From a virus: a stretch of 64,000 bases of DNA. This document shows, one piece after another, positions 2,267 through 34,034 of this stretch. The stretch spans positions 7,618 to 71,617 of the IMG/VR virus record IMGVR_UViG_3300045927_000329; one strand, written 5' to 3'. The notes beneath the pieces are model-generated. The model did not search any database. It saw nothing but the letters and a program-made list of their open reading frames with translations, and was not told the origin of the DNA. Both the position numbers and the translations under genes were made by a program. Position 1 is the first letter of the stretch. Each line of letters starts with the position of its first letter.

Positions 2267-2381
2267 GCTCTTGCCCACATCGCACCTCACAATCAACATT
2301 GATCTGAATCAAACATCGAACTGGGGCTACCCGCCCCCGTGGCTCGTTGTCGTCATCGTCGTCGTCGTCGTCGATGCAGGT

Positions 2382-6356: not shown

Positions 6357-6758
6357 CTACTGCGCCTTCGGCGGCAGGGTCCAGACCGCGGCGAACGCGC
6401 GCCCCTTGGACTTGGCGCCCAGGTTCTGCAGGCGCAGCCGTAGCGTCTTCGGCATCCACAGGCGCTGCGCCTTGAGCCGCGCCTTCAGGTCGCGCACGGT
6501 CTGCGGGCCTTCGAGCAGCGCCTCGCGCAGCGCCGCGTCCAGGCGATCGGAGTCGCGCACGATGGGCGTCCGCTTCGTCGGCTTCGTCGCCGTCGTCTGC
6601 CCGCGCATCCGCGTCGCGGCGCGCAGCTTCCCGTTGAAGCTCGCCTGCGCCCGCGCACCCTGGTCCTCCTCCAGCACCGCCGCCGCCAGCTCCAGGCCCT
6701 CGGCCTTCTTCCGGTACTCCGCCGCCTTCAGTCGCAGGCGTTCGCCCATCGTCGTCAT
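6357..6758 (-). CDS. Hypothetical basic protein, possible wHTH
   Basis: RBS AGGAGGG; ALLEGPQTVRDLKARL resembles an HTH. Confidence 0.6.
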   Translation of the reverse strand: MTTMGERLRLKAAEYRKKAEGLELAAAVLEEDQGARAQASFNGKLRAATRMRGQTTATKPTKRTPIVRDSDRLDAALREALLEGPQTVRDLKARLKAQRLWMPKTLRLRLQNLGAKSKGRAFAAVWTLPPKAQ

Positions 6759-6788
6759 CGTCGTCGTCCCTCCTCTCCTGGCCTCTCC

Positions 6789-13379: not shown

Positions 13380-14123
13380 CTAGAACGGGTCCGCGACCGC
13401 GATCGACGCCAGGGCCACCGCCGCCGGCCGGCGCCGCGCGGCCGCCACCGGCACCGCCACCGGGACGGGCACCGGCAGCCCGGCGCTGGGCGCCTGCGGG
13501 GCCGGCTTCGGCGTGCGGGGGACCTTGGACCCGCCCGACCCGCCGCTCGTCGTTCCTGGGGCCGCCTGCGCGGCCGGCGGGGCCTCCTGGGCCGGAGCGC
13601 TCGCCTGCGTCGCCTCGACATCCTTGGCCGCGTCGCGCCGGGCGGCCGCCAGGGCCCGGAGCAGTCGCTGCGTCTCGGCCAGCCGGCGCAGCGCGCCGTC
13701 ACTGATGCCGGCGGCCGCCACCGCGTGGTTGACCGCGTCGGCGCCCGCGTCCAGGGCCTCATCCGGCAGCGTGAACGTGACGTCACTGGCGAGCACATAC
13801 CGGAGCGCCCGGGTGCCGTAGGCCGTCCAGCCCTCGGACGGGTCGCGCGGCGCGAAGTGGGGCGTGATGGGGCGGCCGAGGCCGCCGGCCGGCTTCGGGG
13901 CCTGGACGGGCGCCGAGGCCTGGACGGCCACCGGGGCGGCCTGGACGGGCGCAGGCGCGGCGATCGGCGCGGGGGTCGGCTGCAGGGCCGGGCAGTCGGC
14001 CGCGTCCGCGTGGCGGGGCTTCTGGCCCTGCTGCCACTCGATCATGGTGCCGGCGGGGAACGCCCGGCGGCACGCCGAGCAGTAGCCTGGGAACCGGGCG
14101 GGAAGGGTGCGGGTCGTCGTCAT
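13380..14123 (-). CDS. Hypothetical protein with N-terminal Zn-binding motif and Pro/Ala linkers
   Basis: ARFPGYCSAC...H...C; RBS GAGGAG. Confidence 0.65.
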   Translation of the reverse strand: MTTTRTLPARFPGYCSACRRAFPAGTMIEWQQGQKPRHADAADCPALQPTPAPIAAPAPVQAAPVAVQASAPVQAPKPAGGLGRPITPHFAPRDPSEGWTAYGTRALRYVLASDVTFTLPDEALDAGADAVNHAVAAAGISDGALRRLAETQRLLRALAAARRDAAKDVEATQASAPAQEAPPAAQAAPGTTSGGSGGSKVPRTPKPAPQAPSAGLPVPVPVAVPVAAARRRPAAVALASIAVADPF

Positions 14124-14240
14124 TGTCGTCGTCTCCTCGCGTTTCGTACGCCGGTGGTCGGCCGGCGCCTCGTCAGGCCTGTCGATTCAGGCGACGCGCG
14201 GCGAGCCAGGGGCGGGGGTGCCCCTGACCCGCCTGGGGCC

Positions 14241-23623: not shown

Positions 23624-25777
23624 GTGGCTGACTTCTCTCCCAGTGGCGTCCTCGACCTCCCGCGCACCTCCGCCGAGTCGCTCCTCCAGGGCGACCCGCG
23701 CGTCCTCAGTTGGCTGCGCGAGTGGGTGCAGGAAGGCGACTTCATCAATCGCCAGGACCCGTCCTACGACCTCATCTCGCGCTCGCAGGACTACATCGTC
23801 GGCCAGCAACTATCTCCCGAAGCGTGCAAGCTGAAATACCTCCCGCAGGTCACCATCAACGAGACGCGCAAGGCGATGCAGGCGCACGTCTCGGCGATCA
23901 CCGACCTCAAGCCGGTGGCCGGCTGGAAGACCAATCCCGAGTACCAGGTCCAGGCCAACATGCTCAACCAGTACCTCATGGCCGAGTGGGTCACGACCAT
24001 GATGGACCTGGACCTCGGCGACTGCGTCAAGTACGCCCTGGCCGGCGGGACCGGCGACCTCGTCGTCGACTGGGACCCGCACGTCCCGCTCGGCGGCGCG
24101 CACCAGCTCACCGCCCGCGACCCACGCGACACGCTCCCCCTGCGCCCCTCCTTCGGCCGCAGCTCCCAGCTCTGGGAGGGCGTCTGCTTCCGCGAGGAGC
24201 ACACCGTCAACGTCCTGCGCGGCATGTACCCGACCCGCGCGCACCTCTTCAAGGCCAGCAGCGACAACCTCCTCGGCCAGGTCATGGGCCGCTTCCGCAC
24301 CGGCCTCAACCGCCTGATCTCCCCCGCTGACCCGCTCGACTCGATCGCCTGGCCGGGCACCGCCGGCACCGCGCGCAAGGCGCGCGCCGGCTCGCTCGTC
24401 CTCTACCGCGCCTACTTCACCGACCGCACGCGCAACCTCACCGGCAAGCCGATCCCCATGGGCACGCCCGGCACCAACTGGGCCTACGTCGTCGAGCCCA
24501 ACCAACCCCTCTACCCGCGCAAGCGCCTGCTGGTCGCCACCGAAGACGCGATCATCTACGACGGCCCGAACACCTACTGGCACGGCATGTTCCCGTTCTG
24601 CCGCCTCAAGCTCTGGTCGGTCCCCTGGCAGTTCCTCGGCATCCCGCTCTTCAACGATCTGCTCCCCCTCCAGGACGCCATCAACGACACGATGCACGAC
24701 GTCCGCCTGGCGATGCGGCAGTGGACCAACCCCGACATCACCTACAACAGGAACGCGGTCTCCGAAGCGACGATGAAGCTGATGGACCCGCGCCGCCCGG
24801 GCAAGCGCGTGAAGATCGCGCCGGGCTTCGGGGACCCGTGGAAGAAGGAAGACGGCCCGGCGCCGCAGATCATCCAGCTCGGGATCGAGCTGTGGCAGCA
24901 GCTCACGCAGAAGTTCGCCGACCTCAGTGGCACCGCCAACCTCTCGGCCCTGCTCCAGCTGCGCCAGATGCCCTCGGCCGACACCATCCAGAAGTACTAC
25001 GAGGCGCTCACCCCCGAGATCCGCCAGGAGGCGCGCCAGGTCGAACTCTTCCTGCGCGACTTCTCGGAGATGGTCAAGATCAACTACTTCCAGTTCCTCT
25101 CTCAATCGAAGCGCGTCTCGATCCTCGGCACCGGCGGCCAGACGCTCGACGAGTTCGACTTCGACCCCGACATGCTCGTCCCCGCGCTCGTCCCCGGGCA
25201 GCCCGGCTACACCCCGGAGCTGGACGCGACCCTCACCAGCCGCGACCAGCGCGCGCAGTACTTCCACAAGCAGTTCGTCTTCATCGTCGCGCCCAACTCG
25301 GTCCTGGCGATGGACGCCACCGAGCGCAAGATGATGCGGGTCCAACTGGCGAGGATGGGCTACTACGACTTCTGGTCGCTGCACGAGACGCTCGAAACTC
25401 CAAACGTCGGCGCCCCGCCGGCCATCCCGCTGCCGCCGCTCTCGCCGCCGCCCGCCGCGGTCCTCCCGATGATGCTGCAGTCGGCGATGGCCTTGCCGAA
25501 CGGCCTCGGCATGATGGCGGCCGGCGCGATGCCCCTGCCCCAGTACACCGACCCGGCCTCGGGGCGCACCTTCACCCTCGACATGGGCAGCGGGCAGATC
25601 CTCGAAGTGCGCGTGCCAGTCACGGTGACCGAACGGTTGCAGGCCCAAGCACTCCTCGGCATCGGGCAGACCGTCTCGCCGGCCGGGCGGAAGGCCAGCG
25701 GGCAGGCGCCGCCGCAGGGCGAGACGAAGAACGACGAGCCGGGCGGGCGGCAGACGATCACCGAGTCGGAGAAGTAG
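23624..25777 (+). CDS. Portal protein
   Basis: 717 aa after terminase; YWHGMFPF, FLGIPLFNDLLPLQDAIN portal-like motifs; RBS GAGGAG. Confidence 0.85.
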   Translation: MADFSPSGVLDLPRTSAESLLQGDPRVLSWLREWVQEGDFINRQDPSYDLISRSQDYIVGQQLSPEACKLKYLPQVTINETRKAMQAHVSAITDLKPVAGWKTNPEYQVQANMLNQYLMAEWVTTMMDLDLGDCVKYALAGGTGDLVVDWDPHVPLGGAHQLTARDPRDTLPLRPSFGRSSQLWEGVCFREEHTVNVLRGMYPTRAHLFKASSDNLLGQVMGRFRTGLNRLISPADPLDSIAWPGTAGTARKARAGSLVLYRAYFTDRTRNLTGKPIPMGTPGTNWAYVVEPNQPLYPRKRLLVATEDAIIYDGPNTYWHGMFPFCRLKLWSVPWQFLGIPLFNDLLPLQDAINDTMHDVRLAMRQWTNPDITYNRNAVSEATMKLMDPRRPGKRVKIAPGFGDPWKKEDGPAPQIIQLGIELWQQLTQKFADLSGTANLSALLQLRQMPSADTIQKYYEALTPEIRQEARQVELFLRDFSEMVKINYFQFLSQSKRVSILGTGGQTLDEFDFDPDMLVPALVPGQPGYTPELDATLTSRDQRAQYFHKQFVFIVAPNSVLAMDATERKMMRVQLARMGYYDFWSLHETLETPNVGAPPAIPLPPLSPPPAAVLPMMLQSAMALPNGLGMMAAGAMPLPQYTDPASGRTFTLDMGSGQILEVRVPVTVTERLQAQALLGIGQTVSPAGRKASGQAPPQGETKNDEPGGRQTITESEK

Positions 25778-25790
25778 AACTAACGTAGAT

Positions 25791-26168
25791 ATGTCCGATA
25801 AGAAGCCGTCGCTGCGCGCGCTGCTCTCCGGGCTCGACCCGCGCACTGCGCGGCTCGCGCGGCGGCTGCTCGAAACGACCCTGCTGCCGCCCGGCGACGA
25901 GGCGGCATTCCAGCGCTGGGCGCGCGAGAACCAGCTCCGCGACGTCGACCACCCCGATAGCTTCTACGACTACCGCGGCTACTGGCAGTCCTCCGGCGGC
26001 CCGCCGCAACCGCCCGGCGCGCACTTCCCCGACACCTACAAGCAGTTCGGCCACCCGAGCTTCTCCGTCGAGTCGCAGTACGCCCAGCCCGGAGAAGGCG
26101 GCACCTGGATCGGCGAGACGCTGCTGCCGCAGCCGCCGCTGGCCGTCTCGCACCGGTCGGAGAAGTAG
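25791..26168 (+). CDS. Conserved phage hypothetical protein
   Basis: FQRW...YDYRGYW...HFPDTYK...HPSFSVESQY motif. Confidence 0.65.
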   Translation: MSDKKPSLRALLSGLDPRTARLARRLLETTLLPPGDEAAFQRWARENQLRDVDHPDSFYDYRGYWQSSGGPPQPPGAHFPDTYKQFGHPSFSVESQYAQPGEGGTWIGETLLPQPPLAVSHRSEK

Positions 26169-26179
26169 AGTAGGCAGCC

Positions 26180-27571
26180 ATGGCAGGCCAGAAGGCCGTC
26201 GTCGCCGATCCGTTCCGCGCGCCCACCGCGCCCGCCTGGCTCGGCAGGCTGCGCGACTGGGTCGATCAGCCCCGCCCGCCCGACTGGTGGACCACCCCGG
26301 TCGAGTTCCCCGGCAAGGCACTCGCGACCGAGGCCGCGCGCAGCGCGCTCCAGTGGCTGACCAACCCGCAGACCGCCGTTGACGCCCTCGCCACCACCGG
26401 CGTCCCGGGCGGCCCCCCGCGCCCGCCCGGCGTACGCGCTTTTCACGGCAGCCCGCACGACTTCGACCGCTTCGACTTCTCTCGAATCGGCAGCGGCCAG
26501 GGCGCGCAGACCTACGGCCACGGGCTCTACTTCGCCGAGCGCGAGCCGGTGGCGCGCACCTACCGCAACGATCTCTCGCCGCGCCCCGAGGTGCTCGTCG
26601 GCGGAGAGCCGCTCGACCAGTTCGGCTACATCCGCGGGGGCCAGCGTGTCCACGACCCGATCGCCGCTGTCGTCGGTGGGCGCCTCTCCTACGCTGCGAA
26701 CCGGGAGCGGCAGTTCGGCCGCACGCCGGACGTGGCGACCCTCGTGCAAAACCTCCGCAACGAGATCGCCGCGGCCACGCACAATGCCTCGCTCGCCACC
26801 TACAACCAGCTGGAGGATCAGCGCCTCATGCTGGACCGGATGATGGAGCGGGGGATTACCCTGACCGACCCGGGCCGCATGTACGAGGTGAACCTCGGCA
26901 TCGACCCCGCTCGCCTCCTCGACTACGACCGCCGCCTCGGCGAGCAGCCGCACGTCATCGAGGCGCTGCGCAAGCTCGGGCTCCAGGACCTCTACGGCGG
27001 CGAGGCGCTCGGCTTCCCGCTGCGCGACCCGCGCAAGGCGATCGAGTTTCCACTGGAGGCGACCGGCGGGCAGGCCTACGTCAATCTCGCGCGCGCGCAG
27101 GCGCCGCCGCTGCCGCCCGCCCTGCGCGACTCGATCCTCGCCGACCGCATCCCCGCTGACGAGCGTGCCGCCTCCGCCGCGCTGGCGCGCACCGGCATCC
27201 CGGGCCTGCGCTACCTCGATCAGTATTCGCGCGGCAGCGCGCCCGAGGTCGAGGCGATGCGTCGTCGGCTCGGCGATCTCCAGGAGAACCTGACCGCCTT
27301 CGATCGTCTGGTCGCGGCCGGCCAGGCGCGGCCCTCCGCGCCGCAGCGTCAGCACTTCCAGACACAGATCGACCTGCTCACCACGCGCCTGGCTCAGCTC
27401 CAGGAGCCGACGCGTAACTACGTCATCTGGGATCCCTCGGTCTCGATCGACATCCTCCGCAAGTACGGCCTGCTCGCCCCGCTCCTCGGCGGCGGCACCC
27501 TCGCCGGCCGCCAGCCGCAGCCGTCCTCCTCGCGCTCTTCGCCGCCGCCGGTCCTCGCGCCGTCGCACTAA
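26180..27571 (+). CDS. Protein with ART-PolyVal-like (ADP-ribosyltransferase fold) domain
   Basis: AFHGSPHDFDRFDFSRIGSGQGAQTYGHGLYFAE...MYEV...GIPGLRYLD...NYVIWD. Confidence 0.75.
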   Translation: MAGQKAVVADPFRAPTAPAWLGRLRDWVDQPRPPDWWTTPVEFPGKALATEAARSALQWLTNPQTAVDALATTGVPGGPPRPPGVRAFHGSPHDFDRFDFSRIGSGQGAQTYGHGLYFAEREPVARTYRNDLSPRPEVLVGGEPLDQFGYIRGGQRVHDPIAAVVGGRLSYAANRERQFGRTPDVATLVQNLRNEIAAATHNASLATYNQLEDQRLMLDRMMERGITLTDPGRMYEVNLGIDPARLLDYDRRLGEQPHVIEALRKLGLQDLYGGEALGFPLRDPRKAIEFPLEATGGQAYVNLARAQAPPLPPALRDSILADRIPADERAASAALARTGIPGLRYLDQYSRGSAPEVEAMRRRLGDLQENLTAFDRLVAAGQARPSAPQRQHFQTQIDLLTTRLAQLQEPTRNYVIWDPSVSIDILRKYGLLAPLLGGGTLAGRQPQPSSSRSSPPPVLAPSH

Positions 27572-27580
27572 AAGCGGCGC

Positions 27581-27790
27581 TCAGCGGCGCTCATCGGCGG
27601 CGGCGCCGTCCGCGGCGTCTCGGCGCTCGGCGAGCACCGCCTCGATCAGGCGGAGCCGGCCGTTACAGAAGTCGCGATCGGCCCCGCATTCGCGGTCGAG
27701 GAGGAAGGCCTGCTGCAGCAGGTACAGCTCCCGCGTGCGCATGGTGCCGTACACCAGGCGGAGGTCCGCGCCGGGGTCAGCGGCGGTCAT
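27581..27790 (-). CDS. Cassette ORF (69 aa, MTAAD...GAAADERR)
   Basis: Starts in one repeat and ends in the terminal degenerate repeat. Confidence 0.7.
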   Translation of the reverse strand: MTAADPGADLRLVYGTMRTRELYLLQQAFLLDRECGADRDFCNGRLRLIEAVLAERRDAADGAAADERR

Positions 27791-27802
27791 CGGCGGCGCC
27801 CG

Positions 27803-27964
27803 TCACTTCGAGTCGATCCAGCACTGCTCGCATAACACCTCTCCCGGTACGATCATCTCGAAGCGTTCGCACCACGCGCAGCGGCCCAACCGGAAATACC
27901 GCCAGCCACCGGTCAGCCACAGCCAGAGTACGCGGCACGGGTGAACAGCGTCAGCGGCGGTCAT
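27803..27964 (-). CDS. Cassette ORF (53 aa, CxxC...CxxC)
   Basis: Hand-translated MTAADAVHPCRVLWLWLTGGWRYFRLGRCAWCERFEMIVPGEVLCEQCWIDSK; stops at the first TGA of the next repeat. Confidence 0.65.
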   Translation of the reverse strand: MTAADAVHPCRVLWLWLTGGWRYFRLGRCAWCERFEMIVPGEVLCEQCWIDSK

Positions 27965-28181
27965 CGGCGGCGCCCGTCCCTCTATTCGCGGCGCGCCACT
28001 CGTTCACGAAGCAGAGAGCGCACACAGGCTGATTGAGATCAGGCGCGTCATGGAACCTGATCGTTCCGCCGATGTGGTCTTCGCACATGACGACCTGCCG
28101 GCACAGGCGACAGCGCACGAGCAGCCCGGCCTCTGCGAGCGTCTTGCCGCAGGTCACGCAGGCGAGGTCAGCGGCGGTCAT
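27951..28181 (-). CDS. Cassette ORF (76 aa, Cys-rich Zn finger)
   Basis: MTAAD...CVTC...CRLC...CEDH...CALC...GAADDRR. Confidence 0.7.
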   Translation of the reverse strand: MTAADLACVTCGKTLAEAGLLVRCRLCRQVVMCEDHIGGTIRFHDAPDLNQPVCALCFVNEWRAANRGTGAADDRR

Positions 28182-28356
28182 CGGCGGCGCCCTCCGCAGG
28201 CGTGAACGTGACGCCGCCCTCGCGCAGCAGGCACTCGATAATCTCTTTCACCGTCGTCAGCAACTTGCCGCTCGCGTCGTAGTGCTTCGTACCACGGGCG
28301 AGCGCCTCGGTGATCTCGCGCAGCAGGATGCGCGCGTTCTCATCAGCGGCGGTCAT
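28168..28356 (-). CDS. Cassette ORF (62 aa)
   Basis: MTAADENAR...GAADDRR. Confidence 0.7.
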   Translation of the reverse strand: MTAADENARILLREITEALARGTKHYDASGKLLTTVKEIIECLLREGGVTFTPAEGAADDRR

Positions 28357-28606
28357 CGGCGGCGCCCGTCACCTTCACCGGATACCCTGCTGCATCGTAG
28401 CTACGCGGGTCCGGGTAGTAGGCTTTCCCCAACGTCGAGAGCGTCTTGCGCCACTCCTTCTCGTAGTAGCACGCAGCCCCGCAGACGGCCTGATCGAACC
28501 CGTGCCATGTGCGGTTCACGGTGGCGGCGTAGGTCACGCCGCAGATGCAACAGAACAACGGCATCTCAGAATAGAGGGACATGGTCGTCCGGTCAGCGGC
28601 GGTCAT
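28343..28606 (-). CDS. Cassette ORF (87 aa, Zn-binding)
   Basis: MTAADRTT...CCICG...VCGAAC...GAADDRR. Confidence 0.7.
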   Translation of the reverse strand: MTAADRTTMSLYSEMPLFCCICGVTYAATVNRTWHGFDQAVCGAACYYEKEWRKTLSTLGKAYYPDPRSYDAAGYPVKVTGAADDRR

Positions 28607-28760
28607 CGGCGGCGCCCTTCCATCCGTTCGCGGCAAGCCACTGCGCCAAGTCGATGATCAGCAGCGCAACCTCCTGCGGCGTCAACGCGCATTCTGGCGA
28701 GTAGGGCCAGCGGTAGAGCGGCTCCGGTGGCCGTTCGTCTTTGCGCTTAGCGGCGGTCAT
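28593..28760 (-). CDS. Cassette ORF (55 aa)
   Basis: Hand-translated MTAAKRKDERPPEPLYRWPYSPECALTPQEVALLIIDLAQWLAANGWKGAADDRR. Confidence 0.65.
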   Translation of the reverse strand: MTAAKRKDERPPEPLYRWPYSPECALTPQEVALLIIDLAQWLAANGWKGAADDRR

Positions 28761-28986
28761 CGGCGGCGCCCGTCACCATGAAGTCGTGCGCCCAGTCCTG
28801 CCGATACGTGCAGTCCTCACAGACCCAGCCAGCGGGCGTCGCGACCAGCACGCGGTGCCGCGAATCTGTGCCGCAGGTGAACGGGTGGACCCGTCCGTTA
28901 TGCTGCCACCGATTCAGGGCGTCGATCTGTTCAGGCGTGAACGGTGCTCGAATGTGCATGTCGTGTGCTCTCTTAGCGGCGGTCAT
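28747..28986 (-). CDS. Cassette ORF (79 aa, Zn ribbon)
   Basis: APFTPEQIDALNRWQ...HPFTCG...LVATPAGWVCEDCTYRQDWAH. Confidence 0.75.
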   Translation of the reverse strand: MTAAKRAHDMHIRAPFTPEQIDALNRWQHNGRVHPFTCGTDSRHRVLVATPAGWVCEDCTYRQDWAHDFMVTGAADDRR

Positions 28987-29209
28987 CGGCGGCGCCCGTC
29001 ACGTAGTCGCGGCATTCTTGGCAGTCGCACGCCTTCCCGGTGCGCTCGCCACGAACATAGGCATTGCGCCCGTGGCATCGGTGTTCAAACGGCGCGCGAA
29101 CGTTGCACCCGTCGCAGATGATCGACGGCCGCGTCATCTCATATTCCTTGTAGCCTTGCCCCTTGTCGTGGTCTGTGGTGATGTCCATGCCTTGCCTCCA
29201 AGGTCGCAT
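28973..29209 (-). CDS. Cassette ORF (78 aa, Cys/His-rich)
   Basis: Starts in the 18-bp type-2 repeat and ends GAADDRR in the type-1 repeat. Confidence 0.65.
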   Translation of the reverse strand: MRPWRQGMDITTDHDKGQGYKEYEMTRPSIICDGCNVRAPFEHRCHGRNAYVRGERTGKACDCQECRDYVTGAADDRR

Positions 29210-29570
29210 AACCGTGATTACGTTTCCTTCGGCTCGATCAGTTTGAAGTCGCCGTCAACGAACTTCCGCAACGCCGCCTCTGCGGATCGGGCGCGGAGGA
29301 TCGCCGCTTGTTCGACCGCGTGATGCGCTGCCATGGCTTCCGTCAGCCGCGCCACCTCGCGCTCCAGCTGCTCGATCTCCGCGACGAAGCTCTCCAGCAG
29401 CTTGTACGCTGCGTAGGTGTCCGCGCCGTAGATCGTGCCGCCCGCGATCGGGTTGATGCCGGTGTCGCTGAGCAGCCCGACGACCTCCCCGCGCCCCTTC
29501 TCCAGGATCGCCTTCGCCCGCTGCAGGTCTTCTTCAATCGTGTCGTAGTAGGGCATAACCGTGATTACGT
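29206..29570 (-). repeat. Second junction repeat ACGTAATCACGGTTATGC x2
   Basis: Exact 18-bp copies at 29206-29223 and 29553-29570, each containing a TAA stop and the next ATG. Confidence 0.9.
29218..29556 (-). CDS. Hypothetical coiled-coil protein (112 aa)
   Basis: Bounded by the type-2 repeats. Confidence 0.7.
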   Translation of the reverse strand: MPYYDTIEEDLQRAKAILEKGRGEVVGLLSDTGINPIAGGTIYGADTYAAYKLLESFVAEIEQLEREVARLTEAMAAHHAVEQAAILRARSAEAALRKFVDGDFKLIEPKET

Positions 29571-30428
29571 CAACGAGTCCGGTGGCGCTTTACAGGTGCA
29601 AGTGGCGAACGCCAGATCGCAATCCGCTTCGTGTTCGCGTGAACACAACGAGCACCCGTTCGGCACCTGCGGATTGACCATCGTCAGCTTGAGCAGCCGC
29701 GCCACCTCGCGCTCCAGTTCCTGCACCCGTTCATGCGCCTCGTTCCACAGCGTCTGCCAGTCGTTGGCCCGGGTGTGCTCCTCGCCCGCCTTCTTGTCCC
29801 AGAAGTCGCGGTCCTCGGTCAGCCGCTCCACCTCGGCCTCCAGGTCCACGACGTCCGCGAACGGGACCATGCCCCCGACGGCCGCTTCGAGTTCGCTCAG
29901 TCGGGCGAGGTAGCGGTCGCCTTCGCGCGTCAGCGCCGCGACCTGTTCCCCGTACTGCGCCTGCATCGCTTTCATGGCGACCCAGTAGTTGTGTTGGTTG
30001 TCGACCAGTGCGACCTGCGCCTCGCTTAGCTTCTTCTGCAGCCCGTCGGCGGCGGCGTGGTAGGTGTCGGCCATGTGCGCGAGATCGTGCTCCAGCTCCG
30101 CGACCCGCGCCTGCCACTTCGCATCACACTTGGCGAGGTAGTTGTCGAGGTCTCTGGCGTGGTCGCGCTCCAGGTCCGCGACGCGCGCCTCCGCCGCCCG
30201 CGCCCGCTCGATCCAGTCCAGCCGCGTCCCCGCATACGACTGTTCGCCAATGGCGGCGTGGTACTCCGCCGTGAGCTGCAGGACCGCCTGCTCCAGCTCC
30301 GCGATGCGCGTCTGGAGCGTCGTGTCGAGCGCCTCCATCTCGCCGCGCTTCACATAGTGCGCCTCGAAGTCCTCGTCGCAGGTGAGGCACTCGCCGTTGT
30401 GATCGGGCTTGAAGTCGCTGCAGGCCAT
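29565..30428 (-). CDS. Long coiled-coil protein with terminal Cys motifs
   Basis: Heptad segments RIAELE/RVADLE/RVQELE; RBS GAGG before ATG 30428. Confidence 0.7.
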   Translation of the reverse strand: MACSDFKPDHNGECLTCDEDFEAHYVKRGEMEALDTTLQTRIAELEQAVLQLTAEYHAAIGEQSYAGTRLDWIERARAAEARVADLERDHARDLDNYLAKCDAKWQARVAELEHDLAHMADTYHAAADGLQKKLSEAQVALVDNQHNYWVAMKAMQAQYGEQVAALTREGDRYLARLSELEAAVGGMVPFADVVDLEAEVERLTEDRDFWDKKAGEEHTRANDWQTLWNEAHERVQELEREVARLLKLTMVNPQVPNGCSLCSREHEADCDLAFATCTCKAPPDSLT

Positions 30429-30439
30429 CGTCGTCGTCC

Positions 30440-30682
30440 TCACCGTCGCGGCTGGCGTGCCTTGAACGCGGCCAGCTGCACCGCGATCACGACATCGGCG
30501 AGGATCTCCTCGGCCGGCAGGTCCTGCCAGATCGCGAGCAGCCCCTCGTGCCGAGCGATGCGTAGCCGATCGACCTGGTCCCAGTCCAGGAGCGGCCCCG
30601 GGTGAACCGGACAGCCGCTCGTGCTGGTCGAGCGGTACTGGCCGTTGACGATGATGCAGGTGCAGTCGGGGTGGTGGGCCAT
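30440..30682 (-). CDS. Hypothetical protein (80 aa)
   Basis: MAHHPDCTC...CPVH; TGATG overlap. Confidence 0.6.
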   Translation of the reverse strand: MAHHPDCTCIIVNGQYRSTSTSGCPVHPGPLLDWDQVDRLRIARHEGLLAIWQDLPAEEILADVVIAVQLAAFKARQPRR

Positions 30683-30858
30683 CAGCTCGGCCTGATCAAC
30701 TCGTTGGTGATCTGCATCATCTCTTCCAGGATGGCGTGCATCCGCGACACGTTGGCGATCGACGCCTTGAGGCGTTCGATCTCGTCGCCCTGGGCCTTGA
30801 AGAGTTCCTGTTGAAATTCGTAGTGCTTGCGGATGAGGGCCTTCTCGTGTTCGGTCAT
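30682..30858 (-). CDS. Small coiled-coil protein (58 aa)
   Basis: Hand-translated MTEHEKALIRKHYEFQQELFKAQGDEIERLK...; RBS GGAGG/GAGG. Confidence 0.6.
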   Translation of the reverse strand: MTEHEKALIRKHYEFQQELFKAQGDEIERLKASIANVSRMHAILEEMMQITNELIRPS

Positions 30859-30882
30859 CGTCGTCGTCCTCGTCCTCCCCGG

Positions 30883-31095
30883 CTACTGCGGCAGGCGCGA
30901 CAGGTTCCACAACAGCCAGAAGATGCCGATGGTCAAGCCGGTCTGGATGACGAGCGTGCTCTTGATGACGGCGAGGTCGCGCTTCATGCTCGCCAGGTCG
31001 TCGAGCGAGGCGGCTTCCCTGGCTTCGGCCTCAGTCGCGGTGGGGACCCGTTTGAGCAGGTCGTAGAGCGCCATGTTCATCGTCTTGATCGGCAT
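30883..31095 (-). CDS. DUF1640-like coiled-coil plus TM protein
   Basis: NMALYDLL...LASMKRDL...C-terminal TM; paralog of 59542-59754. Confidence 0.6.
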   Translation of the reverse strand: MPIKTMNMALYDLLKRVPTATEAEAREAASLDDLASMKRDLAVIKSTLVIQTGLTIGIFWLLWNLSRLPQ

Positions 31096-31154
31096 CGTCG
31101 TCGTCCTCCGCGTCGTCGTCCCCCGCTAGCCTACCACCACCGCCCGCCCTCCCG

Positions 31155-31195
31155 CTTAGGGGGATCTTGACGACCCCCCGATCTGCCCCGACGCT
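31155..31195 (+). promoter_or_regulatory. Putative late promoter motif CTTAGGGGGATCTTGAC
   Basis: Related motifs at 15858, 16621 and 40574, all at starts of plus-strand gene blocks. Confidence 0.5.
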
Positions 31196-31203
31196 TCCAG
31201 ACC

Positions 31204-31362
31204 ATGCCGCTCACCGACTCCGGCTCCAAGGTCCTCCGCTCGATGACCTCGCAGTACGGCGCGGAGAAGGGCAAGCGCGTCTTCTACGCCACGGCGAATA
31301 AGAAACCAGGACTTGGGAAGAAGTGGCACGCCAAACGGGCAATGAGCAGCGGCCGGCGTTAA
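31204..31362 (+). CDS. Small basic conserved phage protein (52 aa)
   Basis: Hand-translated MPLTDSGSKVLRSMTSQYGAEKGKRVFYATANKK..., a motif I recognise from phage head regions. Confidence 0.7.
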   Translation: MPLTDSGSKVLRSMTSQYGAEKGKRVFYATANKKPGLGKKWHAKRAMSSGRR

Positions 31363-31441
31363 CGGTTGAACTACCGCGCACGGTATCGCGCGGCGTAAGC
31401 AGCTCCTCGGCGGTGACCCGACGGTCGCCAGGGTTCGGGCC

Positions 31442-31606
31442 ATGGCAGCGTTCGGCGGCAAGCAGGCGCCGCCCTTCGGGAAGAAGGGCGCAGGCGCACG
31501 CAAATCCAGCAAGGGTCGGAAGCCGACCAAGGACGAACGAGGCGGCTCGCCCGCCAGTAAGGCCTTGCGCCAGCCCCGTTCGATGCGGGGCGGAGGGCGC
31601 TACTGA
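31442..31606 (+). CDS. Small Lys/Arg/Gly-rich protein (54 aa)
   Basis: MAAFGGKQAPPFGKKG...; TGATG overlap with the next gene. Confidence 0.55.
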   Translation: MAAFGGKQAPPFGKKGAGARKSSKGRKPTKDERGGSPASKALRQPRSMRGGGRY

Positions 31607-32010
31607 TGTGGCCCCCGGCCGGCACCGGCTTCCCGGGCATGGGCCCGTCCTCTGGCGCCAGCGCGCTCGACATGCCGCCGCCGTCTCCCACGCCGATGGG
31701 CGGCAGCCCGCTCGACCCGCTCAGCCCGCGCGGCCTCGTCCCGCCCGGCCCGGTCCCGTCGCAGCAGATGCCGCCCGAGATCCTCACCGGTATCACGCAG
31801 TCGGCGCAGGCGATCTCCGACACCTTCGACGCCTGGAGCCAGGTGACGCCCAACCGCGCCGCCCAGCTCGCGCTCATCAAGGACATGCTCCAGCAATACC
31901 TCGCCGACGTGATGGCTGACGGCGCTGGACCGACGACTCCGACTGCCAGTGGTCCGGCGTTCCCTGGCGGCGGCATCGACCGCGGCATGGCAGGTGCCGG
32001 GGCGATCTAA
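31606..32010 (+). CDS. Pro-rich hypothetical head-region protein
   Basis: ORF with a central helical hairpin; high GC3. Confidence 0.6.
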   Translation: MWPPAGTGFPGMGPSSGASALDMPPPSPTPMGGSPLDPLSPRGLVPPGPVPSQQMPPEILTGITQSAQAISDTFDAWSQVTPNRAAQLALIKDMLQQYLADVMADGAGPTTPTASGPAFPGGGIDRGMAGAGAI

Positions 32011-32121
32011 CTGAAACACGCCACTTACCGACGACCGTGCTGAGAGGTGTCCCGGCTGCCCTTGCCCGCTCCCGCGGAGGGGTCCGCCTGGCCGCTTGCC
32101 TCGTGCGGAAGGAGTAGGTCG

Positions 32122-32949
32122 ATGGGTGCATTCGAGTCCGGTCAATCGTTCCTCGCTGGCGTGCTCGCCAAGCTCCCGCCGGAGCTGCGCGCACAGGCGG
32201 AGACGGTCTTCAGCGGAGACCTCGCGAAGGAGGCCGTCACCCTCGCCGGGGATGGCGTGCTGGCCCGCAGCGACTACAGCCGCAACATGGATCTGCTGCG
32301 CGAGAAAGAACGCGAGCTGACGCAGTACTACGAGCGCCTCAATGGTTGGTACTCCGACAACCGCACCGCGCTCGATCGCGCGCGCGAGCTGGAGACCGCC
32401 GCCGGTAACGGGAATGGTAACGGGAATCCGAATCCCAATCCCGCGCCTGCGCCCGGCCCGGCCCCCGCGCCCGCGCCGACTGGTGTCCTCTCGGCCGCCG
32501 ACATCCGCCGCATCGCGGACGAAGCGGTCAACGACGCCGGCCGCGACTACATCGCCGTCACCGCCTTCCTCGCCACGCAGGGCGCCCGGCACTCGCACCT
32601 GTTCGGTGAGCCACTCGACATGACCGAGCTGGTCGCCAATCCCAAGCTCGGCAAACCCGTCTACGGCGACCCGTCGCGAGTGTTCTCGCTGCAGGACGCC
32701 TACATCGAGAAGTACGGGGAGCGGCTCACGGCCAAGCACAAGGAGATCGAAGACAAACGGTTCAACGACGAGGTCGATCGTCGCCTGCAGGAACGGCTGA
32801 AAGCCACCACCTCCACGCATCCGTTCCCGCTGCGCGCCGAGTCCTCGCCCCTCGATGTGCTCTCGACCAAGGAAGGTCCCGCCGCCCACACGCTCGATTC
32901 GGCCGTCGCCGAGTACGAGCGCCTGCAGGCCGCGCGCGGGGTCGCCTAG
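32122..32949 (+). CDS. Putative capsid scaffolding protein
   Basis: Immediately upstream of the MCP; charged helical, SDYSR motif; RBS AAGGAG. Confidence 0.7.
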   Translation: MGAFESGQSFLAGVLAKLPPELRAQAETVFSGDLAKEAVTLAGDGVLARSDYSRNMDLLREKERELTQYYERLNGWYSDNRTALDRARELETAAGNGNGNGNPNPNPAPAPGPAPAPAPTGVLSAADIRRIADEAVNDAGRDYIAVTAFLATQGARHSHLFGEPLDMTELVANPKLGKPVYGDPSRVFSLQDAYIEKYGERLTAKHKEIEDKRFNDEVDRRLQERLKATTSTHPFPLRAESSPLDVLSTKEGPAAHTLDSAVAEYERLQAARGVA

Positions 32950-32981
32950 CCCGGGTCTGGTGAGCCGCCACAGGAGGTCTC

Positions 32982-34034
32982 GTGGCCATACAGCTCGACG
33001 ACGTCAACACCACCGTCACGAAGGAAATCGAACCCGGTGTCGTTGACGGCTACTTCAAGGCCGGTCCCTTCATCGCGATGGCGAAGTCGCGCTTCAATCG
33101 CAAGTGGATCGGCCCGCAGATTCAAGAAAATTTCATGTACAAGCCGATGAAGGGCGGCGCCTACAAGAAGGGCGCCAGCTTCGACATCACGCGGCGGCAG
33201 ACCCGCACGGGCCTGCTCTTCGGGCCGCGCTACTACCAGGTCGGCGTGACCGAGTTCCTCGAAGACATCGAAGTCGAGATGGCCGGTCCGCGCGCCGCCT
33301 TCAGCGTCATCCGCACCGACATGGCGCAGGCCTCGCTCACCATGTCCGCGATCCTGGAGATCGCCGCCTTCCATCACGGCCAGGCGATCCCGGGTGACGA
33401 TCGCTCCGCGGAGATCAACGGGCTCGAAGAGGCCTACGGCAGCGCCGCGACCGCCTCCTGGGCGGGGAACCTCTTCCCCTCCTACGGCGGCCAGACGCGC
33501 GCCGACGTCAGCCCCGCGCTCGACGCGCCCACGGGCCTCATCCCGGCCAACCTCAACGGCCAGCCGATCTCCTACCGCGTGCTGCGCCATTCGTACTTCA
33601 GCTGCATCATCGGCAACGAAGCGCCCACCATCGGCATCACCACGAACCGCTGCATGGGCTTCATCGCTGAGAACTTCCTGCCCCACCAGATCATCGACAC
33701 GACCCAGCCCGAGATCAACTGGCCGGGCATGAAGTTCGACAAGGCGACGATCACGATGTCGCAGTACTGCCCGGGGGCCGACGGCGTCAACGACGAGGAC
33801 CTCGGCAACTACTACGCGCCCTACGAGACCTTCTGGTGGCTGAACTTCGGCCCGCCTGGAGACGACGCCTACATCCGCCTCTACATCGCGCAGTCGCGGA
33901 AGTTCGCCTTCGGCTTCACCGGCTTCAAGGGCGCGCGCCAGGACAACCAGGTCGCCGGCCAGATCCTCTTCGGCGGCAATCTCACCGTGAAGGCGCTGCG
34001 GCTGTCGCGCGTGATCCACGGCATCGGCAGCTAA
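32982..34034 (+). CDS. Major capsid protein
   Basis: 350 aa, RBS AGGAGG, INGL motif, HK97-like layout, very high GC3. Confidence 0.85.
   Translation: MAIQLDDVNTTVTKEIEPGVVDGYFKAGPFIAMAKSRFNRKWIGPQIQENFMYKPMKGGAYKKGASFDITRRQTRTGLLFGPRYYQVGVTEFLEDIEVEMAGPRAAFSVIRTDMAQASLTMSAILEIAAFHHGQAIPGDDRSAEINGLEEAYGSAATASWAGNLFPSYGGQTRADVSPALDAPTGLIPANLNGQPISYRVLRHSYFSCIIGNEAPTIGITTNRCMGFIAENFLPHQIIDTTQPEINWPGMKFDKATITMSQYCPGADGVNDEDLGNYYAPYETFWWLNFGPPGDDAYIRLYIAQSRKFAFGFTGFKGARQDNQVAGQILFGGNLTVKALRLSRVIHGIGS

Follow-up and report, generated by a model that had tools for sequence, protein, structure and literature searches.

A tandem array of eight unrelated mini-genes joined by a short stop-start repeat in the genome of an uncultured soil phage

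Features of the locus

The array is located in a complete viral record of 71,617 bp with terminal repeats (IMGVR_UViG_3300045927_000329), the genome of an uncultured, lytic-looking soil phage. The window, to which all coordinates refer, is the whole stretch of 64,000 nucleotides that was analysed. Eight mini-genes, c1 to c8, stand at the end of a block of about 12 leftward-directed genes. This block lies in a hypervariable gap, with a conserved 717-aa gene on one side and conserved late genes on the other; the gap measures 5.8 kb here versus 276-4,286 bp in 41 relatives. The 717-aa gene is likely the portal gene, a name given from position only. The 350-aa late gene shows 78-96% identity in the closer relatives. 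The array is within the head-gene region, but its block and the head genes lie on opposite strands. The borders and the upstream part of the block are as follows.

23624..27571, plus strand: left border, the conserved 717-aa gene followed by genes of 125 aa and 463 aa converging on the array
29206..29223, minus strand: type B joint, ACGTAATCACGGTTATGC (stop TAA, 8 nt, ATG), between the 112-aa gene and c1
29218..31095, minus strand: upstream genes of the same leftward block, 70 aa, 58 aa, a 292-aa coiled coil and 112 aa
29553..29570, minus strand: second exact copy of the type B joint, between the 292-aa and 112-aa genes
31606..34034, plus strand: right border, conserved late genes of 134, 300 and 350 aa

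The starts of the 70-aa, 58-aa and 292-aa upstream genes are preceded by a further context, type A (GAGGACGACGACGATG). For the 292-aa gene no relative was found, and the 463-aa neighbour was matched at a single distant locus (L009), which carries no array. A megablast search of 20 kb against GenBank phages gave no match.

The mini-genes and the repeat copies between them are listed from the upstream to the distal end of the array.

28973..29209, minus strand: c1, 78 aa, Cys/His-rich, ends in YVTGAADDRR and the stop within repeat copy 1
28975..28996, minus strand: repeat copy 1, c1/c2 joint, full 30-mer form with GTGAC prefix, last stop TAA
28747..28986, minus strand: c2, 79 aa, zinc-ribbon-like, of a widespread phage small-protein family
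28749..28770, minus strand: repeat copy 2, c2/c3 joint, full 30-mer form, last stop TAA
28593..28760, minus strand: c3, 55 aa, starts MTAAKR, ends in WLAANGWKGAADDRR and the stop
28595..28616, minus strand: repeat copy 3, c3/c4 joint
28343..28606, minus strand: c4, 87 aa, Cys-rich
28345..28366, minus strand: repeat copy 4, c4/c5 joint, full 30-mer form
28168..28356, minus strand: c5, 62 aa, of a widespread small-protein family
28170..28191, minus strand: repeat copy 5, c5/c6 joint, GGAGG just before
27951..28181, minus strand: c6, 76 aa, 7 Cys
27953..27974, minus strand: repeat copy 6, c6/c7 joint
27803..27964, minus strand: c7, 53 aa, 5 Cys, closed by the TGA in the GTGAC that directly precedes the repeat, 13 nt upstream of the following ATG
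27779..27800, minus strand: repeat copy 7, c7/c8 joint, full 30-mer form
27581..27790, minus strand: c8, 69 aa, last cassette, ends in GAAADERR and the stop within the degenerate eighth copy
27583..27604, minus strand: repeat copy 8, degenerate (2 mismatches), followed by no gene, only by an 8-codon mini-ORF

Anatomy of the repeat

The 22-mer GGCGCCGCCGATGACCGCCGCT occurs in eight minus-strand copies, seven of them exact and the distal one with two mismatches, against a mean of 0.02 matches in 100 dinucleotide shuffles, none of which reached eight. The copies are spaced 196, 174, 217, 175, 250, 154 and 226 nt apart. A first-pass annotation of the same DNA had described eight minus-strand copies at 154-250 bp intervals with a degenerate distal one, and both statements are confirmed. 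The array is the sole site of the repeat in the whole 71,617-bp record.

The repeat unit of 23-31 nt contains the last codons and the stop of the previous ORF (reading GAADDRR) and the ATG and first codons of the next (MTAAD or MTAAK), with four codons of the next gene following the ATG. All copies have the same orientation and cover the start codon. The ATG lies 14 nt before the stop of the previous ORF, and because of this 14-nt overlap both neighbours receive new peptide ends. The 30-mer of the c7/c8 joint is complete even though c7 terminates in a different frame, which indicates an element of DNA or RNA rather than of peptide. The edges are ragged, as expected of recombination, the exact match extending a further 1-7 nt on the 5' side and 0-4 nt on the 3' side. 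The c3/c4 and c6/c7 joints have 20 of 30 upstream nucleotides in common, the last 51 nt of c3 (C-terminal) being 88% identical to those of c6, and MTAAKR is common to the c1/c2 and c2/c3 joints. A polyprotein made by frameshift or readthrough was considered and rejected: at six joints the following ORF lies in the +1 frame and at one in the same frame, with no slippery site present.

A purine run with a GGG core (GACGGG, GGAGGG or GAAGGG) stands 10 nt upstream of the repeat ATG, separated from it by a C-rich, poorly folding spacer. The run is at best a weak match to a Shine-Dalgarno sequence. The segment GAGGGCGCCGCCGATGAC is three mismatches away from the genome's own early-gene start context GAGGACGACGACGATGAC, which has 17 matches in the genome versus 0.16 expected. 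Segments of 61 nt at the joints have a mean folding energy of -16.1 kcal/mol versus -21.3 kcal/mol in 400 random segments (p 0.006), and they are not less folded than 81 other gene starts (-18.1 kcal/mol, p 0.2). Six of the seven intact joints fold more weakly than their shuffles (z of at least +0.6). No stable RNA structure was found at the joints, nor any attC-like or recurrent inverted repeat. Promoter-like sites are absent from 27000-31800, and none of the joints has a terminator, nor does the array contain a strong one. The genome has no complementary copy of the repeat with two or fewer mismatches, nor the window one with three or fewer, and no Rfam family matches the repeat.

Smaller duplications of gene ends were seen elsewhere. 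In the same genome MSAPPF opens two unrelated adjacent genes, MAWHDFW opens two further genes, and TCGGAGAAGTAGA closes two more. On the unrelated contig L277 three unrelated adjacent genes have GGCATGAGCGAGAT in common, and at least three copies of a joint were present in 6 of 63 loci scanned.

Properties of the mini-genes

The intervals are filled by eight intact ORFs of 53-87 aa on the same strand. Of the eight, c2 to c8 start MTAA(D/K) at an ATG within a repeat and c1 starts at the type B joint, so that the annotated uniform MTAA start applies to seven mini-genes while the intact ORF in every interval stands. Seven end in the repeat frame, six with GAADDRR, as had been noted for most of them, and c8 with AAADERR; c7 is the exception. 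The tail of c8 in copy 8 shows an apparent in-frame extra GCC and a conservative D-to-E change, and remains acidic-basic. The repeat ATG is the first start codon of the c3 and c5 to c8 ORFs. The gene calls of the source record use it for c3, c4, c5, c6 and c8, and call c2 from Met10.

Third-position G+C (GC3) of the mini-genes is 0.76-0.90 and exceeds GC1 and GC2, a coding signal. The mean for the interiors is 0.825 versus 0.903 for 83 other called ORFs (Mann-Whitney p 0.0008), in line with the atypical codon endings reported earlier, the comparison set being biased upward because the ORF caller demanded a GC3 of at least 0.72. Five of the eight are Cys-rich, again as reported: c1 with 6 Cys, c2 with 3 (and 6 His), c4 with 5, c6 with 7 and c7 with 5. 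The interiors show no pairwise similarity (best E 0.49, less than 15 bits), which bears out the description of the cassettes as mutually unrelated.

No mini-gene matched a Pfam or PHROG family. The locus thereby shows the two marks of a hyperplastic region of the PeSL (promoter-early stem-loop) type, a variable gap and genes of no such family. The protein atlas returned 'hypothetical protein' clusters only, mostly viral, and no meaningful name emerged when alignments of the c2 and c5 families were searched against Pfam. The c2 alignment comprised 21 of the 26 non-self matches, leaving out P0015, P0022, P0026, P0030 and P0032 (95-136 aa); the c5 alignment comprised 24 of 148, picked from the best-scoring short ones. 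In tblastn against GenBank phages c2 had one match, over residues 16-71, and c1 and c4 had none. No match to c1, c3 or c7 was found in 55 related loci and five complete relatives, and no relative of c6 or of c8 was found.

The first-pass annotation had proposed a search for homologs that occur without the repeat, and such homologs exist for c2, c4 and c5. The usual start of the c2 family corresponds to Met10 of c2, the repeat adding MTAAKRAHD in front and TGAADDRR behind. In three related contigs (L179, L204, L194) the c4 homologs cover no more than residues 9-79, with a start and a stop of their own. The family's own Met is retained in c2 (residue 10) and c4 (residue 9); in c5 no start other than the repeat ATG precedes the conserved domain. 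Repeat-encoded ends (MTAA start, GAADD or AADDRR) were found in none of the 26 c2 homologs and none of the 148 c5 representatives, all of which were included in this check. Since relatives of c2, c4 and c5 elsewhere are free of these ends, the joint was grafted onto pre-existing genes. Comparison of sequences is enough to show that one joint was placed on at least three pre-existing unrelated gene families, with new protein ends for each.

Search for recombination functions

No integrase, recombinase, Cas, reverse transcriptase or transposase family was detected by Pfam in the ORFs scanned, in agreement with the earlier remark that no integrase is adjacent. The scan covered 71 window ORFs, the eight mini-genes with two neighbours, and eight ORFs outside the window; ten of the 71 were re-scanned singly. 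The alignment set of 71 left out the mini-genes, which were scanned separately, and ORFs below 50 aa. In total 87 of 90 called ORFs were scanned, together with c3, which the caller had missed; the other three (47, 74 and 54 aa) lie outside the window or at its left edge.

Occurrence of the repeat in other genomes and sequencing runs

The repeat was found in none of the five complete relatives at up to three mismatches, and no 15-mer with at least three copies in the 55 related partial loci matches it. No relative thus carries the repeat, so gain, loss or reordering at it cannot be demonstrated. In contig collections, which may lack the records closest to the window, the exact 22-mer has no locus among viral contigs. 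Its 18-mer core was matched at 50 viral and at least 119 metagenome loci, with a single match each among the matches listed. A search for two-copy patterns gave three loci, all unrelated, and no other record with two or more copies was present among the matches listed. In genome contigs the 22-mer had 15 single matches, all of which were rejected as chance. In 13 of the 15 the opposite strand has an open frame reading AAVIGGA, within a common E(L/V)..I.AAVIGGA..GG motif in nine of these 13; at a guess, the 15 matches represent membrane-transporter and other cellular genes.

The array is matched without differences by contigs of three further soil runs (X3, X4 and X5), and one 3,580-nt contig of X4 spans five repeat copies. 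As far as these contigs reach, the cassette content is the same as here. In run X6 a 411-nt contig begins in the repeat at the c6/c7 joint, tracks c7 for about 80 nt (5 differences, 2 gaps) and then diverges, which hints at a variant array. No junction between repeat copies was found in the contigs of the four runs, weak evidence because contigs drop rare variants. The junctions listed, such as 27479 to 31205 (X3 and X5; side 34), have short sides and were detected at 85% likeness; relatives may be their source. Copies with 30-31 nt in common are expected to break contigs at the repeats, and such breaks do not testify to rearrangement. Among the runs listed as carrying the array there is no RNA run.

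Interpretation

The repeat is probably a translation joint of the stop-restart kind, duplicated at each gene insertion and a variant of the start context that this phage uses itself; our confidence in this reading is moderate. Because the ATG and the stop overlap within the joint, ribosomes finishing one mini-gene would restart on the next by translational coupling. The identical copies do not stem from divergence of one ancestral gene. As shown for c2, c4 and c5, the joint was copied or recombined onto genes that have their own ends elsewhere, and it gives each about 5-9 new N-terminal and 7-9 new C-terminal residues. As the likeliest origin we infer, from this one genome, that each insertion of a promoter-less gene, through short-homology or illegitimate recombination, duplicated a joint already present. 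Joint duplication would also account for the runs of joint types along the block (three of type A, two of type B, then seven of type C, the present repeat) and for the other duplicated gene starts in the genome. The copies are a possible substrate for unequal recombination, with no current gain or loss seen. Two observations fit a coupling joint poorly: coupling needs no 23 identical nucleotides, and it does not predict that seven of eight cassettes read the repeat in one frame (about 0.008 by chance, a hand estimate). The same-frame reading could point to a useful peptide tail.

A bolder proposal, which we regard as unlikely, would make the 30-mer a universal gene connector with which the phage's own replication-recombination machinery captures, duplicates and discards mini-genes, free of integrase and still active in soil populations, the X6 contig being one variant. 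As the full 30-mer would close all three frames and restart translation, a promoter-less coding fragment placed by recombination between two copies would be expressed at once.

The 23 identical nucleotides in seven copies, more than coupling alone needs, could also mark a site of joint regulation. The start region, on mRNA or DNA, would be bound by a protein of phage or host or by a small RNA, which would switch the seven cassettes together; the targets of T4 RegA are the model. It would suit this reading that all copies have one direction and lie over the start codon, and that the degenerate copy is the last one, with no gene to start. A regulatory role has been raised for the start-associated sequences (SAS) of Cluster K mycobacteriophages by Pope et al. 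2011 (PMC3203893). Against it stand the lack of a complementary copy within the mismatch limits given above, of an Rfam match and of a candidate binder, and the absence of the repeat from all relatives examined, unlike the cluster-wide SAS. Compatible as it is with a stop-restart joint, a regulatory site is nevertheless unlikely.

The reading of the tail frame in seven of eight cassettes has another conceivable cause, namely that MTAAD, GAADDRR or both are functional tags for head packaging, export or turnover on unrelated small proteins. The model is the capsid-targeting sequence of the T4 internal proteins, which directs packaging and is cut by the head protease. The degenerate last copy keeps the tail AAADERR, and the array lies inside the head-gene region; the head genes, on the other hand, are encoded on the strand opposite to that of the block, and the peptides are only 5 and 7 residues long. 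Moreover, c7 is without the tail and c1 without the head peptide, yet the DNA repeat at c7/c8 is complete. Identity at silent sites is little informative, since two frames fix each base of the overlap and codons ending in C are preferred in any case. Tags are judged quite unlikely.

The first-pass annotation had interpreted the locus as an integron-like or CRISPR-like platform for gene acquisition and shuffling. Its cassette part stands: the units are whole unrelated mini-genes, with a repeat imposed on genes that exist elsewhere. An active dedicated platform, with an unrecognised enzyme acting at the repeat, is very improbable. It would explain same-direction, promoter-less, unrelated and compositionally atypical cassettes between identical repeats with a degenerate terminal copy, and the X6 contig hints at variation. 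Against it, none of the enzyme families sought is present in the scanned ORFs, no attC-like hairpin was found, the repeat has ragged edges, the intervals consist of genes coding for 53-87 aa rather than of spacers, no relative has the repeat, no other record among the matches listed has two or more copies, and repeat-to-repeat junctions are absent from the contigs of four runs, a weak point given what contigs drop. The annotation had named identical cassette content in relatives as telling against a platform; the identical content of X3 to X5, as far as their contigs reach, does count against active shuffling. It had likewise named diverged tandem paralogs, which would have kept only their ends, and an assembly artefact; the ends are indeed the only similarity, and short repeats can mislead assemblers, but neither is credible in view of unrelated interiors, three cassettes in three different families with their own ends elsewhere, and independent contigs of three other runs with no differences, one bridging five copies.

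Tiny accessory genes abound in phage genomes, and how they arise and turn over is poorly understood. Smaller cases, found in this genome and on contig L277, suggest that stop-restart joints may be general. If so, such joints would account for the addition of promoter-less mini-genes to phage operons and for their immediate expression, and would offer a compact natural connector for polycistronic constructs in high-GC hosts. As it adds no evidence for ongoing shuffling, the case weighs as a clean anatomical example rather than as a new mechanism.

Comparison with known systems

Integron arrays consist of IntI, attI and attC sites, the latter being imperfect inverted repeats that fold as single-stranded hairpins at the cassette boundaries. 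The present array resembles them in its promoter-less unrelated genes of one direction with a recurring site between them, and differs in that it has neither IntI nor an attC hairpin, that the cassette boundaries are not precise, and that the cassettes have coding ends in common. From a CRISPR array it differs in the lack of a Cas family and in intervals of 154-250 nt that are ORFs with a GC3 of 0.76-0.90, not uniform non-coding spacers. As to tags of the T4 internal-protein type, the sequence gives only hints, namely the frame bias, and one of the two peptides is missing in c1 and the other in c7.

The PeSLs of T4-type phages consist of a sigma-70-like promoter and a terminator hairpin and are intergenic, and their role in indels and mini-circles was shown by comparison of close relatives and by experiment, according to Arbiol et al. 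2010 (PMC2839356) and Comeau et al. 2014 (PMC4122927). As described there, they too are short repeated motifs that flank small genes of unknown function in hyperplastic regions and provide short homology for exchange of unrelated genes. Set against those descriptions, the present repeat lacks promoter and hairpin, leaves no intergenic DNA, encodes protein in two frames, and is not the site of any demonstrated exchange.

The SAS of Cluster K mycobacteriophages is, as described by Pope et al. 2011 (PMC3203893), a 13-bp sequence with a strong AGGAG core located 3-7 bp upstream of the start. According to the same paper, 11-19 copies are dispersed over the non-structural genome half and conserved across the cluster, the sequence is absent from other phages, and a role in translation initiation was proposed and never tested. 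By that account the present repeat differs in its length of 23-31 nt, in including the ATG, four codons and the last codons of the previous gene, in its weak purine run, and in forming one tight array of tiny genes that is absent from all relatives examined. The likeness to the SAS so described lies in a short, asymmetric repeat of one orientation at the starts, usually ATG, of genes from different families, and in the stop of the upstream gene, which is sometimes inside the SAS and here lies inside the repeat.

Genomic setting

The viral record is 71,617 bp long, has direct terminal repeats and is rated complete; the window covers its bases 7618-71617. The terminal repeat is 127 nt long and exact (G000:C1:1-127, equal to window 63874-64000), and the G+C content of the window is about 70%. 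Genes for a family A DNA polymerase, helicases, methylases, a PD-(D/E)XK nuclease and SU10-type adaptor proteins are present. The ORFs scanned yielded no integrase, reverse transcriptase, transposase or Cas family, in line with the first-pass annotation, which had noted that no integrase is adjacent to the array.

A leftward block runs from 31095 down to 27581. It consists of genes of 70, 58, 292 and 112 aa followed by eight small cassette ORFs (c1-c8, numbered in the direction of transcription), the array forming its end. To the left of the block lie a conserved 717-aa gene and two variable genes, and to the right conserved late genes. The 717-aa gene is common to 55 related viral loci (50 at 64-88% identity, 5 at 38-41%), 41 of which also carry the 134-aa gene; the gap between the two genes holds 276-4,286 bp of unrelated content in these 41 loci, compared to 5.8 kb here. 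A repeat-like 15-mer in at least three copies was found in none of the 55 loci, and none of the five complete relatives contains the repeat, with 3 mismatches allowed, or encodes any of c1-c8.

The 463-aa gene converging on the array (26180-27571) has relatives in only 4 of the 55 loci (33-38% identity) and matches nothing in Pfam or PHROGs. Contigs of two other soil sequencing runs (X3 and X5) join 27479 to 31205 and omit 3,725 nt, very nearly the exact extent of the leftward block. This join, whose shorter side is only 34 nt at a likeness threshold of 85%, may represent a relative without the block.

The repeat

The cassettes are separated by the 22-mer GGCGCCGCCGATGACCGCCGCT, present on the minus strand in eight copies (27583-28996) at a spacing of 154-250 nt. 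Seven of these are exact; the distal copy differs at 2 positions. Shuffling gave a mean of 0.02 matches, eight copies being reached in 0 of 100 shuffles, and no further copy exists in the whole record. The eight minus-strand copies and the degenerate distal one had been described correctly from the sequence. An assembly artefact is contradicted by Logan contigs from three further soil runs of three studies (X3-X5, all soil metagenomes of 2023 and possibly of one campaign), which match the array with 0 differences; one X4 contig of 3,580 nt spans 25000-28411 and bridges five copies. The array is real.

Read in the coding direction, the complete unit is GTGAC-GGGCGCCGCCG-ATG-ACCGCCGCT-(G/A)A. 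One frame gives the end of one gene, ..(VT)GAADDRR and a stop, and the frame one base further gives the beginning of the next, ATG ACC GCC GCT GAC/AAG (MTAAD or MTAAK), with each start 14 nt ahead of the preceding stop. The exact core is 23 nt long and its edges are ragged, with an upstream extension of 5-7 nt in four copies. The full 30-mer occurs in four copies and, as read on the sequence, holds a stop in all three frames. The joints that follow c3 and c6 have 20 of 30 upstream nt in common (..W.AAN...GAADDRR), and both joints flanking c2 have MTAAKR in common downstream. The start of c1 lies at another joint type, and c8 ends inside the degenerate copy, beyond which only an 8-codon mini-ORF follows.

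Cassette c7 uses another frame and ends on the TGA of GTGAC. The DNA repeat at the c7/c8 joint is complete, though c7 does not read the tail frame; the conserved entity is therefore the nucleic acid and not only the peptide. The acidic-basic tail peptide could be useful in itself, as seven of the eight cassettes share one reading frame through the repeat, though the other frames are closed too, and the degenerate copy keeps a similar tail.

Cassettes and their relatives

The intervals contain eight intact ORFs of 78, 79, 55, 87, 62, 76, 53 and 69 aa (c1-c8) with clear coding periodicity and a GC3 of 0.76-0.90. Without the repeat-encoded ends no pairwise similarity was found among them (best E 0.49, <15 bits), as the first reading had proposed, and Pfam and PHROGs gave no match at a meaningful level. 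Relatives are known for c2, c4 and c5. The 26 non-self homologs of c2, among 5.8 billion clustered proteins, belong to a family (21 aligned) that starts at the position of c2 Met10 and ends a few residues past DWAHDFM. For c5, with 148 non-self representative relatives, the family (24 aligned) has about five family-specific residues before a conserved ENARIL block, and variable tails. Homologs of c4 occur on three related phage contigs, elsewhere in the genome, with their own Met and stop, the alignment being limited to residues 9-79. An MTAA start, GAADD or AADDRR was found in 0 of 26 c2 homologs and 0 of 148 c5 representatives. Searches with c6 and c8 returned only self-matches, c1 had no match in GenBank phages, related loci or complete relatives, and c3 and c7 were compared with the relatives only.

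The repeat adds 5-9 residues to the N-termini and 7-9 to the C-termini of the proteins. Since the relatives of c2, c4 and c5 lack the repeat-encoded ends, the repeat is not a remnant of a common ancestor and was put onto already existing genes. Together with the unrelated interiors, these relatives contradict diverged tandem paralogs.

In L179 (788-1100) and L204, the c4 homolog shares an ATGA overlap with the gene directly downstream of it, and the N-terminus of that gene (..EPDHNGEC.HCDE..) is similar to the N-terminus of the window's 292-aa gene. The L179 pair lies on the strand of the 717-aa gene, ~9 kb ahead of it. Relative to these two loci, some of the leftward block appears to have been relocated.

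Putative start-site function

In the ORFs of c3, c5, c6, c7 and c8 no start codon precedes the repeat ATG, which the source's gene caller took as the start of c3, c4, c5, c6 and c8. In c2 and c4 the native family Met is still present and the repeat ATG is a candidate start. The phage's own start context (type A), GAGGACGACGACGATGAC or near variants, stands before many of the leftward genes (17 matches with 3 mismatches or fewer, 0.16 expected) and looks to be the phage's version of a start-associated sequence.

Sequence matches to the GAGGACGACGACGATGAC start context
30424-30441, minus strand
30854-30871, minus strand
31091-31108, minus strand
6754-6771, minus strand
2352-2369, minus strand
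14119-14136, minus strand

The array repeat itself is among the 17 matches, as GAGGGCGCCGCCGATGAC, which makes it a C-rich variant of this context. In the related record G004 a separate version (reverse complement of CATCGCTCTCTCCTCTC) occurs 4 times, and two more sites carry shortened forms.

The repeat is poorly structured: of the seven intact joints, six fold less well than their own shuffles (z +0.6 to +1.9). Joint windows of 61 nt have a mean of -16.1 kcal/mol, against -21.3 in random windows (p 0.006), and do not differ from other gene starts (-18.1 kcal/mol, p 0.2). No promoter-like site was found, no terminator or recurrent inverted repeat exists at the joints, and Rfam gave no match to the repeat. 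The purine run 10 nt before the repeat ATG is weak and distant, which suggests that the cassettes rely on ribosomes arriving from the upstream gene. We infer translation by termination-reinitiation, in which ribosomes finishing one gene would restart at the repeat ATG of the next cassette. A specific binder of the repeat is possible, since 23 identical bases exceed what coupling needs.

Origin of the repeat copies

Three joint types occur in runs along the block: type A three times, type B twice, and the array repeat seven times, followed by a remnant. Elsewhere in the genome neighbouring unrelated genes have common first codons, and one pair has common closing codons; these pairs display the same joint-duplication habit as the array.

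Duplicated joints and gene ends
29206-29223 and 29553-29570, type B 18-nt stop-plus-start joint ACGTAATCACGGTTATGC, exact copies on either side of the 112-aa gene that immediately precedes the array
10504 and 10656, minus strand, MSAPPF starts of adjacent unrelated genes
22519 and 22863, plus strand, MAWHDFW starts of adjacent unrelated genes
near 25770 and 26160, plus strand, closing codons ..SEK* with TCGGAGAAGTAGA in two genes

The 292-aa coiled-coil gene also has an exact 24-nt repeat in common with the 112-aa gene, CAGCCGCGCCACCTCGCGCTCCAG (plus strand, 29344-29367 and 29694-29717).

Among the loci around c2 homologs of unrelated phages, 6 of 63 contain a repeat of at least 13 nt in at least three copies at gene spacing. 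Beside the c2 homolog of an unrelated 58-kb viral contig (L277:3255-3760), three adjacent unrelated small genes begin with GGCATGAGCGAGAT, and two of them have ~54 nt in common, comprising the end of the upstream gene, the ribosome-binding site and MSEIP. The ragged edges, the runs of joint types, the common gene ends elsewhere and L277 probably reflect joint duplication on gene insertion. A gene inserted into an existing joint through short-homology or illegitimate recombination would duplicate that joint, and the survivors would be insertions leaving both genes a working start. A precise site-specific enzyme fits less well.

Of the acquisition and shuffling platform proposed in the first-pass annotation, the unrelated mini-genes with a grafted joint stand. 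Active shuffling finds its only hint in an X6 contig (another soil run) of 411 nt, which begins in the c6/c7 joint and departs from the array some 80 nt on as a possible variant array. The other holders have the same content, which counts against active shuffling under the refuting condition set in the first-pass annotation, although contigs hide rare variants.

Comparison with known systems

The integron-like or CRISPR-like identity was not upheld, as defining features of integrons and of CRISPR arrays are missing. The nearest described systems are the start-associated sequences of Cluster K mycobacteriophages, 13-bp repeats of putative function directly before the starts of unrelated genes (PMC3203893), and the PeSLs of T4-type phages, promoter-terminator cassettes mediating small-gene shuffling in hyperplastic regions (PMC2839356, PMC4122927). 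The array lacks defining features of both. The relatives compared gave no sign that its joint is still in use, but it offers a very clear case of grafting onto genes that already existed, and judged from its sequence the array would work most like a stop-restart joint.
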